Shown here: positions 3,258 through 24,719 of the stretch, in pieces
Position numbering within the stretch: position 1 is the first letter of the stretch
Layout: each line of letters starts with the position of its first letter
NCBI GenBank assembly: GCA_964357805.1
Contig: CAYHMS010000005.1
Coordinates: forward strand, 1 to 32,567
Length of the DNA stretch: 32,567 nt
Direction: 5' to 3'
Source: an uncultured Candidatus Saccharibacteria bacterium
GTDB taxonomy: Bacteria; Patescibacteriota; Minisyncoccia; Phycocordibacterales; Phycocordibacteraceae
The notes under the pieces: generated by a model
What the model saw: the letters and a program-made list of their open reading frames with translations, nothing else
Databases searched by the model: none
What the model was told of the DNA's origin: nothing
Translations under genes and position numbers: made by a program

Positions 3258-3656
3258 TTACGTGCCCTTCATAGCTTTAGCGGAGTAGGGGGCAAGCGTC
3301 ACTTTCATCCGACTCTTGCGGCGGCGAATAAGCGAGGCGCGGCCGAAGGCGCGTGGCATATATTTCTTCAATATACCGGCGCTTTCGACAATGATGTCTT
3401 TGACGACCAAGTCGTCCCACTTCTCCTTTCCGCCGGAGGCGGATCCGCCTTCGGCGGACGCGTTCGCCGCTGCGCTCTTGATGAGCTTCGCCACGGGCTC
3501 CGAGGCGCGCTTCGGCAGGAACTGGAGCGCCACGAGCGCCGCAGACACTGACTTTCCCTTCACGAGGTCAGTGACCAGACGCACCTTGCGCGGGGTCTGA
3601 TTATGGCTCTTGAGTGTCGCGCTCGCCCTTCGTAGCTTCAGCGAAGTAGGGTTCAT
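3258..3656 (-). CDS. rplV: 50S ribosomal protein L22 carrying two in-frame palindrome-derived insertions
   Basis: TPRKVRLV.DLVKGK..KLIKSAAANA..PRAFGRA; start moved to ATG at 3656, just after the rpsS stop. Confidence 0.95.
   Translation of the reverse strand: MNPTSLKLRRASATLKSHNQTPRKVRLVTDLVKGKSVSAALVALQFLPKRASEPVAKLIKSAAANASAEGGSASGGKEKWDDLVVKDIIVESAGILKKYMPRAFGRASLIRRRKSRMKVTLAPYSAKAMKGT
3429..3458. repeat. 30-bp near-palindrome (two 15-bp hairpins) inside rplV
   Basis: Minus strand TCCGCC-GAA-GGCGGA TCCGCC-TCC-GGCGGA, codon-aligned, encodes SAEGGSASGG. Confidence 0.9.
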
Positions 3657-7112: not shown

Positions 7113-7727
7113 TTATTGTGGTGGCGGAAGGTTGAAATGTTGGCGTAGTTTCTCATCGTGCTCTATTTCATCAGCAACTATGTAGAGAACTCCATATCCA
7201 AGCTTGAGATGTGTACGTAAAAAGACAAGGAGTTTTTCACACGGATACGGGTACGCCCATGCGCTGTCCTGAACTTTGACGAAGCCGAATTCTTTGAGAG
7301 TTTCTCGCAGCTCATCACGCACCTTCCGGCGCCTCTCCCACACATCAAACATAATGATTCTCCATTTCTGGTCCCATTTCCTCTGCTTCGTAGGACGTAC
7401 TTCTTCACGCTGGCTCAACTCTTCAGCAATTTTCATCCCCTTCTCCGTCAGCTCTATGCGAGATCCATGCTGTGTGTTCGTCCGTCTGAATATTCCTTGA
7501 GCAATCAATTCTGAATATTTCTGGCTCACTCGCCGTTTGAGTCGAGGAGAAGGTCCGATGGCTTTTTCTACATACTTGAGAAGTCTCACAGCATTTGGCG
7601 CCATAACTATCATCCCTACTCCAACAGCGAGGTATGTCGAGAGTAAAACTGCATCTCTGATTTGATTACGCTTTGCCCTATGTCTCACCCTCTCCTCAAT
7701 ACTCCCCGTCTGCGCTTTTTTCTTCAT
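7113..7727 (-). CDS. CPR PaaX-family regulator-like protein (wHTH + Cas2-like domain)
   Basis: IELTEKG wing motif, then WDQKWRIIMFDVWERRRKVRDELRETLKEFGFVKVQDSAWAYPYPC. Confidence 0.8.
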   Translation of the reverse strand: MKKKAQTGSIEERVRHRAKRNQIRDAVLLSTYLAVGVGMIVMAPNAVRLLKYVEKAIGPSPRLKRRVSQKYSELIAQGIFRRTNTQHGSRIELTEKGMKIAEELSQREEVRPTKQRKWDQKWRIIMFDVWERRRKVRDELRETLKEFGFVKVQDSAWAYPYPCEKLLVFLRTHLKLGYGVLYIVADEIEHDEKLRQHFNLPPPQ

Positions 7728-8049: not shown

Positions 8050-8490
8050 TTAAACCATTTTCACATCTATCGTGACTCCCGACGGAAGATTGAGGTTCGT
8101 GAGGGCCTCTATCACCTTCGGCGAAGGATTGAGGATGTCGATGAGGCGCTTATGGATGCGCATTTCGAACTGCTCGCGCGCGTCCTTATAGACGAAGGTG
8201 GAGCGGTTCACCGTCCAGCGCTTAATCTCGGTCGGCAACGGGACCGGCCCGACGACGACGGCGTCAAAGCGCGCAGCAGTGTCCATAATCTGCTTCACCG
8301 ACATATCCAGAATTTTGTGCTCATACGCCTTCACGCGGATGCGGAGCTTGTGCTCTGTCACTGGAGCGGCCGATGTCGCTTTCTTTTTCGGTACGACCTT
8401 CGCTCGCGGCGCCTTCGGCGCCGCGGCCTTCTTCACCGGGGTTTTCGCCTTCGGTTTTGCTTTTGGCTTCGTTGCCATTTTTGTTGGCAT
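8050..8490 (-). CDS. rpsJ: 30S ribosomal protein S10 with Lys/Ala/Pro-rich N-extension
   Basis: [36 protein letters not shown]. Confidence 0.97.
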
Positions 8491-10004: not shown

Positions 10005-10037
10005 TGAAAGTTAGGACATCGGATGTCCTAACTTTCA
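10005..10037. repeat. perfect 33-bp palindrome (16-bp arms, 1-nt centre)
   Basis: TGAAAGTTAGGACATC-G-GATGTCCTAACTTTCA, overlaps the stop codon of the HicA-like gene. Confidence 0.9.
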
Positions 10038-22456: not shown

Positions 22457-22738
22457 ATGGAAAAAATCACTCCACACGGATTCACTGAGCATGTTCGGCC
22501 ATTACTTTTTAGTGGTCACGGCTTCGATACTGAAAAAGCGAATCACGCAGAGAATGCATACAATTCTTATTTGGTGTCATCAGGGCACAAAGAACTAAAG
22601 AAGGAACACTTCAGTGATGCATTGGAGCATATTCAAGGGCATCCAGATTTTAAAAAACTAAGCCCTCATCAACAAGAGTCTTTTGTCTCCACATTAAGAA
22701 AAACTCTGGGAGTAAAAGAAGAAGTTACAACTGAATAA
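22457..22738 (+). CDS. hypothetical protein (93 aa, low GC)
   Basis: ORF fills the gap between rsmA and pcrA. Confidence 0.55.
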   Translation: MEKITPHGFTEHVRPLLFSGHGFDTEKANHAENAYNSYLVSSGHKELKKEHFSDALEHIQGHPDFKKLSPHQQESFVSTLRKTLGVKEEVTTE

Positions 22739-24719
22739 TTTCTTCTCCATCGGTCTCGTCATAATGCACGAGTGACGGGTCGATGTCGGCGAGGAAGGAG
22801 GAGGGTCCAGTTATGCAATCGCTGCCGTAGAGTTTGCGAACGCGCGCGAGCGTGAGGATGAGGCGTTCCTTCGCGCGCGTCATCGCGACATAGAAGAGTC
22901 GGCGTTCCTCTTCTTCATCGCGACTGTCTTCTCCACCAACCGGCGGACCCATACCTTGGTGCGGGAAAAGGCCTTCCTCCATACCGCTTACAAATACAGT
23001 CTCAAATTCTAAGCCTTTTGCCGCGTGCACGGTCATGAGAGTTACTCCAGTTTTTTCACCTTGACCTGCCTGCGCAGGCAGGTCCATCTCATCTTGGTCG
23101 CTCGCGAGCGCAGATTCGGCGAGAAATGCGGCGATGCCGTCTTTGCCGGGCTGGCTATCGTGTCGCGTAGCGACCGAAGCGAGCTCTTCTATATTTTCAA
23201 ATCGTTCGCGATCATTCGCGCTCCCCTCTTCATAGAGCACACGGCGCATACCGCTTTTCTCAACCACGAGTTTTACGAATGCAGAAGGCACAAGCGAGCG
23301 CGCAGCGCTCGCGAGTTCAGCGATAACACGCTCAAATGATTCGACCTTCGCAAGCTCCCCTGCACGCAATTGCGAGCGCTGTCCTGCAGCTCGCCCAGCA
23401 CCAAATCGGATTTGGTGCTGGGCGAGCTTGCCTAGGGTTATTTTCCCAATACCCCGTGGCGGAGATTGTGCCGCGCGGAGTTTATCAACCTCGCGTGAGG
23501 GATCCATTGCGAGTCGCATCCATGCGAGCGCGTCCTTTACCTCTTTACGCGCGAAGAAATGTGTACCGAGCAGTTTGTACGGCACGCCCGCGTGCAATAA
23601 CCCCTCTTCAAGCGCGCGTGACTGGAAATTAGTACGATATAAAATTGCAATCTCTTCTGGTTTCCGACCTTCCGACATCTGTTGCTTTATCCGGAGTGCG
23701 ATCCAGCGCGCTTCGTCTTCGGCGCTTCGCGCCATATGAACAATGAGCGGCTCGCCAGCGCCGCGCTCGGTCGTTGAATATTTCTCCTTCCGATTTCTGT
23801 TCTTCTCAATGACTGCATTTGCCGCATTGACGATATTTTTCGTCGAACGATAATTGCGTTCAAGAATGAGCGTCCGCGCGTCCGGATATTTTTTTTCAAA
23901 ATTCAAAATGTTCTCCATCTTCGCTCCGCGCCACCCGTATATCGACTGGTCGCCGTCGCCGACGACGAATAGATTTTTGTGTTTTTCCGCAAGCAGGCCG
24001 GCGAGCCGTTCTTGCAGTTCGTTCGTGTCCTGGTATTCATCAATATGAAGATACTCCCAGCGATTCTGCGCGAGCGCGCGAATATCGGCGTGCTCTTCAA
24101 GCATCCGTACGGGGAGCGCGATGAGGTCGTCGAAATCAAGTGCTTTCTCCGCCGCGAGCGACTTTTCGTAGCGGAGCCATACTTCCGCGGCGATGCGATT
24201 GCCGAAACCCGAACGGGCATGTTTCTCGTAGAACTCATGCACACGCATTCCTTCTCCCTTATGGCGTGAAATTCTGCCGAGAACCGCTCGTGGCGAAAGC
24301 CCTGCCTGCGCAGGCAGGTCTTTCGCTCCAACATCAAGCGCTTTCAGCGCCGCGGCCACAACCTTTTCTGAATCATCGCGGTCGTAGATGCTGAAGAAGC
24401 GCGGGACACCGATGGCTTTCCCATAGCTCTCCAAGAGCTCTCGACCGAGGCCGTGGAAGGTCGCTATAAAAGGAGACGAGGAAGTATTTTCTTCGCCAAG
24501 CATCTTTCGGACCCGCTCGCGCATCTCACGGGCGGCTTTATTGGTGAAGGTGACGGCAAGAATTTGATAGGCAGGAACGCCTTCTCGGATAAGATGGTAA
24601 ATGCGCGTCGTGAGAACGCGTGTTTTACCGCTCCCGGCGCCCGCGAGAACCGAGATTGGACCATCTGTGGCAAGCACGGCACGCCTCTGCGCATCATTCA
24701 GTCCCCCAAGATATTTCAC
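22725..24719 (-). CDS. pcrA: UvrD/PcrA-family DNA helicase with four in-frame palindromic inserts
   Basis: AGAGSGKT, TFTNKAA, DEYQDTN, VGDGDQSIY, NYRST, TVHAAKGLEF, EERRLFYVAMTRA. Confidence 0.96.
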   Translation of the reverse strand: MKYLGGLNDAQRRAVLATDGPISVLAGAGSGKTRVLTTRIYHLIREGVPAYQILAVTFTNKAAREMRERVRKMLGEENTSSSPFIATFHGLGRELLESYGKAIGVPRFFSIYDRDDSEKVVAAALKALDVGAKDLPAQAGLSPRAVLGRISRHKGEGMRVHEFYEKHARSGFGNRIAAEVWLRYEKSLAAEKALDFDDLIALPVRMLEEHADIRALAQNRWEYLHIDEYQDTNELQERLAGLLAEKHKNLFVVGDGDQSIYGWRGAKMENILNFEKKYPDARTLILERNYRSTKNIVNAANAVIEKNRNRKEKYSTTERGAGEPLIVHMARSAEDEARWIALRIKQQMSEGRKPEEIAILYRTNFQSRALEEGLLHAGVPYKLLGTHFFARKEVKDALAWMRLAMDPSREVDKLRAAQSPPRGIGKITLGKLAQHQIRFGAGRAAGQRSQLRAGELAKVESFERVIAELASAARSLVPSAFVKLVVEKSGMRRVLYEEGSANDRERFENIEELASVATRHDSQPGKDGIAAFLAESALASDQDEMDLPAQAGQGEKTGVTLMTVHAAKGLEFETVFVSGMEEGLFPHQGMGPPVGGEDSRDEEEERRLFYVAMTRAKERLILTLARVRKLYGSDCITGPSSFLADIDPSLVHYDETDGEEIIQL

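Follow-up and report, generated by a model that had tools for sequence, protein, structure and literature searches.

How does one and the same 18-bp palindrome come to stand twice, in frame, in a single helicase gene? The question is raised by pcrA in the window, by which we mean the whole 32,567-nucleotide stretch analysed here. The window belongs to the genome of a groundwater bacterium (G000 below; C numbers denote contigs and L numbers loci fetched from genomes), which is gene-dense and comprises 645 kb in 78 contigs at 52% GC. An initial annotation had reported the palindrome, CCTGCCTGCGCAGGCAGG, at two places in pcrA, each time adding the residues LPAQAG, and had taken the copies for insertions of a frame-preserving mini-element. 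We find that both are indeed true insertions of such an element, and we consider it probable that they represent a small mobile hairpin, non-autonomous and of the kind known as repetitive extragenic palindromes (REPs).

Two insertions in pcrA

From its sequence, the predicted product of the host gene (Table 1) is a full-length superfamily 1 helicase of the PcrA/UvrD type with the conserved motifs. It aligns with PDB entry 1pjr over residues 4–650 (E 6e-145), its homologues, by whose source names the genome belongs to Ca. Kaiserbacteria/Patescibacteria, contain the Pfam domains PF00580 and PF13361, and its frame scores 635 bits against NCBIfam TIGR01073, under the equivalog cut-off of 911. The window matches CCTGCCTGCGCAGGCAGG exactly twice, at the positions that had been reported, and holds no third site even when up to three mismatches are allowed. 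Among 100 dinucleotide-preserving shuffles of the window, none contained two or more matches to the 18-mer (mean 0). Both copies directly follow GA on the coding strand, as had been noted (GA/CCTG...CAGG), and the stretches that span them read KDLPAQAGLSPR and EMDLPAQAGQGEK. Together with bases of the host, each copy can form a longer hairpin. Predicted folding energies are −17.1 kcal/mol as DNA (z −5.9) and −23.8 kcal/mol as RNA for the 34 bases around copy 1, and −10.1 kcal/mol as DNA (z −4.5) for the 22-bp palindrome around copy 2.

Table 1. Location of pcrA, its palindromes, and other features discussed in the text
Feature	Location	Strand	Remarks
pcrA, UvrD-type superfamily 1 helicase gene	window 22725..24719	-	664 aa, open, full length
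Copy 1 (site 1)	window 24301..24318		splits an ancestral GAG codon as GA/G; LPAQAG = residues 135-140
Copy 2 (site 2)	window 23065..23082		splits an ancestral GAT codon as GA/T; LPAQAG = residues 547-552
Extended hairpin at copy 1	window 24293..24326		host flanks GCGAAAG/CTTTCGC pair around the element, one C/T mismatch
22-bp perfect palindrome	window 23063..23084		copy 2 plus the target's GA and TC; from palindrome census
RAYT/TIRYT-like gene	C44:1836-2693	+	flanking palindrome TACAAGGTTcAACCTTGTA
RAYT/TIRYT-like gene	C3:8697-9431	-	flanking palindrome TGATGGACACGtCGTGTCCATCA
RAYT/TIRYT-like gene	C23:3246-3929	-	flanking palindrome ATGAAAGACCTCgGAGGTCTTTCAT
RAYT/TIRYT-like gene	C29:1442-2182	-	flanking palindrome CAAGGCctcGCCTTG
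CAAGGTTnAACCTTG doublet	C6:25967/25985		example
CAAGGTTnAACCTTG doublet	C8:20493/20516		example
CAAGGTTnAACCTTG doublet	C26:7549/7567		example

The evidence for insertion comes from orthologues. Forty relatives were searched, and 27 full-length pcrA loci were aligned; two split or partial loci (L035, L037) and the relatives that yielded no locus were left out. The 18-base unit is lacking in all 27. At site 1 none has an insert of any kind: the proteins read K(E/D/Q/K) before the site and (L/F/H/M/V/Y) after it, the DNA reads GA(G/A) CT., and the window's AAA GA[18]G CTT becomes GAG CTT (KE L) once the 18 bases are removed. At site 2 none carries LPAQAG. Many orthologues of the same genus have MDQGE or LDQGE there (GAT CAA/CAG GG.), and GA[18]T CAA of the window minus 18 bases gives GAT CAA (D Q); the orthologues of G009 and G005 contain a different insert at or beside the site. 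The proposal that precise removal restores KELSPR and EMDQGEK therefore agrees with what the orthologues encode, as does the claim that neither site bears a visible target duplication.

Where the inserts fall in the protein can be judged from alignment to known structures. Site 1 corresponds to a gap relative to 1pjr, the Geobacillus PcrA, whereas site 2 lies opposite its GTEQAAEGD linker. The aligned chain 2pjr_A ends at residue 548, facing query residue 546; because it stops there, we read site 2 as a probably exposed and flexible stretch, and both sites may be taken for loops.

The insertions had also been called recent. Sequencing runs holding the pcrA stretch numbered 11, from four studies, and were examined as Logan contigs. 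X1 contigs cover all 2201 bases with no difference, and X6 and X7 contigs, from another study, bridge both palindromes, again with no difference and with no indel listed. Since contigs of two studies bridge both palindromes unchanged, an assembly artefact is ruled out, and the inserts are shown to be the majority form; contigs of this kind cannot reveal empty alleles at low frequency. None of the 11 runs, which came from a DNA search with no RNA search made, is on record as RNA. Among 120 database homologues (75–81% identical), LPAQAG at site 1 is confined to the window's own protein (P0001, with the near-identical entry P0002) and to P0008, which is 80.7% identical to it and has LPAQAG at both sites. 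Placing P0008 as sister of the window's PcrA is not rejected (p 0.32). As P0008 may be such a sister, the two inserts could be older than the initial annotation assumed, the alternative being that both sites were hit twice. A recent origin does not follow from these data.

Site 2 is a hot spot. Among the same 120 homologues it is empty in 74 and filled by an LPAQAG-type insert in 7 (one of them nested, LPAMPAHAGQAG), by an HPSTRSGQ-type insert in 22, by LPAGRQ in 2 and by other sequence in 15. On a tree built with the insert columns removed, the seven LPAQAG rows need seven changes, and grouping them in a single clade is rejected, at a cost of 260 log-likelihood units (p-AU 1.5e-8), in a test on 55 of the 120 rows (the seven, their neighbours and representatives). 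Targeting of the linker and mere tolerance of inserts there both fit this pattern.

The HPSTRSGQ-type inserts, which read (H/R)PSTRSGQG, form a second family that fills the same linker in many lineages (22 of the 120 homologues; also L014 = G009, L019 = G005); its DNA in G005, CCCCTCGACTCGCTCGGGGCAGGGG, forms an imperfect hairpin only. In some congeners PcrA reaches about 1020 aa and its helicase match is split in two (G024:C9, locus L035), and the homologue P0091, of 1016 aa, carries PF14890, which we take to be an intein-type domain; this would mean an intein in the same gene family.

A dispersed hairpin family

Allowing up to two mismatches, the 18-mer occurs nine times in G000 (four exact copies, four with one mismatch, one with two), and a reversed control sequence does not occur at all. 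The initial annotation would have been refuted had only the two copies in pcrA existed, with orthologues carrying LPAQAG in scrambled codons; the nine copies, and the orthologues without insert, show otherwise. All nine are intragenic, in hosts recognised by Pfam: PcrA (twice), a PIF1-like helicase, DNA polymerase I, SecD, LemA, glutaredoxin, a KhpA-like KH protein and ribosomal protein L25. Eight of them use the LPAQAG frame, some in the variant forms MPAQAG, LPAQAE and LFAQAG, and the copy in the PIF1-like helicase is read in another frame as PASAGR.

What is conserved in the element is its 8-bp stem, CCTGCCTG/CAGGCAGG. The centre varies, being CG in the 18-mer, CCGG in a sister 20-mer (LPAGRQ), and ACCGA or TCGG in single copies. 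The sister family, with the same stem (CCTGCCTGCC/GGCAGGCAGG plus centre variants), has about 12 copies of 20–21 bases in G000, which read LPAGRQ(G/A) and lie in GyrA (twice), a TraG/VirD4-like ATPase (twice), IF-2, S6, ArgRS, GluRS, a SpoU methylase and adenylate kinase. By a plain count, with no formal enrichment test, PcrA, the PIF1-like helicase, PolA, GyrA and the TraG-like ATPase together hold 8 of about 21 family copies. Perfect palindromes of at least 16 bp are frequent in this genome, with 54 observed against about 11 in Markov-1 simulations.

The gyrA gene (C18:6698-9232) contains, besides two 20-mers of this CCTG family at 8406 and 9165, a longer perfect palindrome of 30 bp at 7202, TCCGCCAGAGGCGGATCCGCCTCTGGCGGA. 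The 30-mer recurs almost unchanged at C4:11199, and its 14-mer core, AGGCGGATCCGCCT, at window positions 3437-3450.

We then compared G000 with its congeners. At up to one mismatch, the 18-mer is carried by 28 of 222 species genomes of the genus, with 1–23 copies each; 194 have none, and the reversed control is absent from all 222. Thirty copies were fetched from relatives, 25 of them from five congeners, and 20 of the 30 encode an LPAQAG-type peptide when the longest open reading frame (ORF) is taken as the frame. For 21 copies, the locus could be paired with that of G000. In eight of these pairs (L009, L044, L046_1507, L047, L050, L054, L059 and L061) G000 has a clean 18-base gap, with no duplication. 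Five pairs share the copy in various states of decay, one with a 3-base deletion; G000 C8 differs from G006 at 3 of 18 letters, and G000 C10 from G009 at 2 of 18. Four pairs have other sequence at the site, which in two cases is a different palindrome (GTAGGACC-TCGGA-GGTCCTAC and GCCCCAGCGCTGGGGC), and the remaining four align poorly. As old shared copies decay roughly as fast as their flanks, these data suggest that perfect copies are comparatively young.

Target preference is limited to the two adjoining bases. In 136 distinct exact copies, a purine precedes the element in 107 and a pyrimidine follows it in 103, and nothing further is preferred. The site bias is thus a preference for a purine/pyrimidine (R/Y) step, of which the GA noted earlier is a special case; the count of copies and flanks that had been proposed as a check gave nine copies in the genome and showed that the GA dinucleotide is not general. 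An extended palindromic target was considered and rejected, complementarity between positions −1 and +1 being found in 52 of 136 copies against 44.7 ± 5.0 expected from base composition (not significant). The GTAG and CGTC tags of known REPs occur beside 2 and 3 of the 136 copies, respectively.

The 18-mer has no stop codon in any of its three frames. When it enters a codon between positions 2 and 3 (NR/Y), it leaves the preceding residue unchanged (NRC) and adds LPAQAG and nothing else, and the final codon becomes GGY. Before the leucine one finds mainly D, G, S, N, H, Y and R, which fits this rule. The excess of LPAQAG over the Cys- and Arg-rich frames is most simply ascribed to selection.

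The element is not confined to the genus. When one genome for each prokaryote species was scanned for exact matches, at least 113 stretches were found. Among the 80 whose titles were listed and counted by hand, 47 are Patescibacteria of many classes (WWE3, Woese-, Gottesman-, Beckwith-, Shapiro-, Dojka-, Uhr-, Nomura-, Yonath-, Zambryski-, Wildermuth-, Kaiser- and Saccharibacteria), 27 belong to other phyla (Bacteroidota, Terriglobia, Gammaproteobacteria and single others) and 6 are unlabelled. At some of these loci, which have 32–40% GC, a match to an 18-mer of 72% GC cannot be due to chance. Assigned by longest ORF, the 83 copies at the listed loci read LPAQAG in 48 cases, PACAGR in 20 and CLRRQ in 15. 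One caveat here is that the rule is sometimes wrong: it scored L051 as PACAGR, and the G000 orthologue, a KhpA-like protein, is in the LPAQAG frame.

Counted over whole genomes, the copies number 70 in G238, a member of the Sphingobacteriales, 17 in G241, a Patescibacterium of 32% GC, and 12, 8 and 4 in three others. At the five loci seen in G238 the ORFs that cover the copies are short (36–86 aa), and some copies adjoin a longer repeat; there the 18-mer looks like an ordinary extragenic repeat. On contig C190 of this genome (L193), a CCTG-family variant, CCTGCCTACCGCAGGCAGG, at 1718-1736 opens a truncated ORF that resembles a REP-associated tyrosine transposase (RAYT) and now starts with MPACGRQ.

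Candidate movers and alternative explanations

How might such an element spread? It enters as an 18-base unit at purine/pyrimidine steps, with no target duplication. In a gene-dense genome of some 650 kb, nearly any landing place would be a gene, and the survivors would be those insertions that keep the frame, are free of stops and lie in tolerant surface loops. The added Leu-Pro-Ala-Gln-Ala-Gly, a small flexible peptide, would be tolerated; the linker at site 2, which many lineages have filled with CCTG or other hairpin families, may be a place of this sort. The most likely agent of movement would be a Y1 HUH transposase (RAYT/TIRYT-like) acting in trans on the single-stranded hairpin, as has been proposed for REPs. 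By analogy with those systems we hold this to be a possible mover, at somewhat less than an even chance.

G000 has four candidate genes for such enzymes (Table 1). Their products, of 227–285 aa, match PF01797 (Y1_Tnp) at 45, 31, 30 and 21 bits and carry the HUH motif MPNHFHLL and the tyrosine in Y..YIHLNP; the three proteins tested score 52, 35 and 32 bits against NF047646, the family of REP-associated tyrosine transposases, whose cut-off is 80. Each gene is bracketed by its own palindrome. Three of the hairpin cores were searched for and are dispersed in the genome (27 copies of the C44 type, many of them in close inverted doublets, 7 of the C3 type and 5 of the C23 type), and several lie in long ORFs. 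The C23 gene even carries its own hairpin in frame within itself, read as GMKDLGGLSF, and the congener G049 (L180) has kept the C44 arrangement with its three hairpins. The hairpin CAAGGTTnAACCTTG has 27 sites in G000, often as REPIN-like inverted doublets 18–27 bases apart (examples in Table 1), and some copies are inside long ORFs such as one of 609 aa on C8 and one of 831 aa on C9. REPtron- or TIRtron-like systems whose hairpins enter genes are therefore at work in this genome.

Several observations weigh against reading the 18-mer as a mobile hairpin moved in this way. The CCTG hairpin flanks none of 37 Y1 loci in 10 genomes, most of which have a hairpin of their own on both sides. Y1 genes are also present in five of five congeners that lack the 18-mer, and their presence therefore does not account for its patchy distribution. 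There is neither a GTAG or CGTC tag nor a conserved target tetranucleotide, as in IS200/IS605, among the 136 copies. The Logan contigs, which drop rare variants, show no insertion or excision polymorphism. REPs are as a rule lineage-specific, and identity to the letter in several phyla is odd among them; the frame counts depend on the longest-ORF rule with its occasional errors, as at L051. As for other enzymes, PF07282, the TnpB domain, gave no match above cut-off in five of five genomes.

Nearness to RAYT-like genes was tried as a cognate link and rejected. In G000 C23, L090 and L088 a RAYT-like gene starts 110–185 bases downstream of the 18-mer, and in L208 one starts 138 bases downstream of a variant. 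The genes in C23, L090 and L208 are bracketed by another hairpin, and that in L088 has one at its 3' end only; in C23, L090 and L088, moreover, the 18-mer sits inside the neighbouring gene (that for L25 in G000).

Alternatively, the 18-mer might be an orphan hairpin with a mover of its own, possibly carried between cells and phyla, that prefers replication and repair genes (PcrA, the PIF1-like helicase, PolA, GyrA) and particular loops. The PcrA linker would then be targeted, having been hit independently at least six times. We regard this as unlikely; if true, it would explain the perfect copies in Patescibacteria of 32–55% GC and the 70 copies in the Sphingobacteriales genome.

Other explanations dispense with a mobile hairpin. 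A transposon with terminal inverted repeats of 9–10 bp (CCTGCCTGC...GCAGGCAGG) could have left with its ends abutted, so that only 18- or 21-base scars survive in genes. A perfect palindrome with no loop is what abutted inverted ends would give, the sister forms are 20–21 bases long, and copies do cluster: the 23 family copies in G000 include four pairs no more than 1.5 kb apart, where 1.2 would be expected (p 0.03). Such a footprint is nonetheless improbable. A constant stem with a variable centre suggests a hairpin and not a pair of ends, and the target duplication that most transposons of this type leave is missing. No separated pair of half-sites surrounds a gene in G000, where solo half-sites are few and unpaired, and in L092, where two copies are separated by 2.3 kb, the genes between them are DUF3822, RsmD-like and CoaD-like, with no transposase. 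A larger element with 18-mer ends was rejected on these grounds, the genes in L092 being housekeeping genes; the absence of a full-length element is in itself weak evidence, as metagenome-assembled genomes often lose repeated transposons. We deem it quite improbable, too, that no transposase is involved and that the 18-mer was copied from locus to locus when replication or repair switched templates at hairpins, or passed between lineages as they recombined with foreign DNA. This would suit the lack of a cognate enzyme among the Y1 loci looked at, the clusters within genes (two copies each in pcrA, gyrA and the TraG-like gene), the many replication and repair hosts and the repeated filling of PcrA site 2. 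However, targets share only the R/Y step with the element, filled and empty alleles have flanks that diverge just as the species do and show no sign of imported tracts in the aligned pairs, and identical blocks in genomes of 32% and 55% GC from different classes need a sequence-specific agent.

That the sequence is a functional motif kept as useful (a binding site, an uptake signal or an RNA hairpin) might be argued from its exact conservation across phyla, the stability of the hairpin in both DNA and RNA, and the bias to replication and repair genes. It is, though, very improbable for a motif that arises as an 18-base block and not by point changes, is missing from 194 of 222 congeners, has copy numbers far below those of uptake signals, and in orthologous old copies decays about as fast as the flanks (the 3/18 and 2/18 differences given above). 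Palindromes can also come from chimeric junctions during library preparation or assembly, an explanation whose probability we put at next to nothing: besides the bridging contigs, there are decayed and orthologous copies in other species, copies in frame in real genes, and a reversed control that finds nothing in 222 genomes. A mobile hairpin remains the preferred reading. The element is an intragenic hairpin resembling REPs or Rickettsia palindromic elements (RPEs), rather than a new system for adding peptides, and where the initial annotation saw an active system of that kind, the pattern fits selfish DNA filtered by selection, with stop-free frames and survivors in loops.

Relation to described repeats

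RPEs, which Ogata et al. reportedly described in 2000, are said to be about 100–150 bp long and confined to Rickettsia. Like them, the 18-mer is a palindromic repeat that stands in frame in protein genes of a reduced genome, with an extra peptide that is tolerated (here by prediction); unlike them, it spans 18 bp and six residues and is widespread. Miniature inverted-repeat transposable elements have reportedly been seen in frame as well, for example in Coxiella. The 18-mer shares with these the property of a non-autonomous repeat able to extend proteins, but unlike them it makes no target duplication (at the two pcrA sites and in the eight filled/empty pairs) and has no internal segment between terminal inverted repeats. 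IS200/IS605 elements depend on hairpins and, as here, leave no target duplication; they have a fixed tetra- or pentanucleotide 5' of the insertion and two different end hairpins, in contrast to the single symmetric hairpin and the R/Y preference of the 18-mer. G000 resembles REPtron and TIRtron systems in its four Y1 HUH genes bracketed by their own dispersed palindromes, partly in close inverted doublets. It differs in that the 18-mer flanks none of the 37 Y1 loci and that the RAYT-like proteins fall below the NF047646 cut-off.

The closest parallel is found in the intragenic REPs described by Di Nocera et al. (2013, PMC3733652), as far as the parts of that paper on which we draw extend. There, REPs are found wholly inside ORFs in several species; many hosts are genes of replication or repair, among them UvrD/Rep, PolA, UvrABC and RecBCD genes, some ORFs are hit twice, and recB has been entered by different REPs at nearly one position in two species. 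REPs of the CGTC type have a stem of 8–9 bp, a loop of 4–5 and no dedicated transposase, RAYT-like 'TIRYT' genes are bracketed by their own palindromes, and intragenic repeats of Rickettsia conorii are equated with RPE-4 and RPE-6. The 18-mer agrees with the intragenic REPs in those parts of the paper in being a short GC-rich stem-loop, dispersed, variable between genomes and read through as extra residues, and in having a UvrD-type helicase and PolA among its hosts and double hits in single ORFs; as with CGTC REPs, no dedicated transposase was found. It departs from them in lacking a GTAG or CGTC tag, in being a perfect palindrome of 18 bp (20–40 bp for REPs), and in that all nine G000 copies are intragenic, a minority position for REPs, which are mostly extragenic and downstream of ORFs. 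Its Patescibacterium host and its exact identity in several phyla also set it apart.

In the literature searched we found no mention of LPAQAG, LPAGRQ or the 18-mer, and among the best-ranked matches for palindromic, in-frame, RAYT or REPIN elements in Patescibacteria nothing on such an insert. The kind of element has already been described, as intragenic REPs and RPEs, in the parts of PMC3733652 consulted; what is new is a form without a tag, of minimal size and perfect symmetry, wholly intragenic in G000, in this host phylum and identical across phyla. The cross-phylum identity and the repeated arrival at one helicase linker go beyond the known behaviour of REPs.

The element shows how selfish DNA can persist in a very small, gene-dense genome, by being short, free of stops in each frame and translatable as a harmless loop. 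For uncultured Patescibacteria it also provides a convenient marker of recent changes in the genome, and it holds a warning for annotation, in that loops of six or seven residues reading LPAQAG or LPAGRQ are inserts and not conserved motifs. With four small candidate enzymes from one genome, the movement of REP-like hairpins becomes testable.

Other palindromes and repeats were seen in passing. The palindrome (T)GGTATGATATATCATACC(A) has about eight sites in G000 (C4:28918, C12:8667, C12:10304, C20:8278, C20:7789, C34:1964, C1:14879 and C39:1866) and resembles two overlapping extended −10 boxes that face each other. G000 also contains a run of N at C23:2131-2230, and palindromes in which a G run precedes a C run (G11CGC11, G10C10) at C1:17081-17104, C14:10429-10448 and C14:10457-10472. 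Within the window, a long hairpin, TGAAAGTTAGGACATCGGATGTCCTAACTTTCA, lies at about 10005-10037, and its core, GACATCGGATGTC, occurs twice more on C8 (13903 and 13928).

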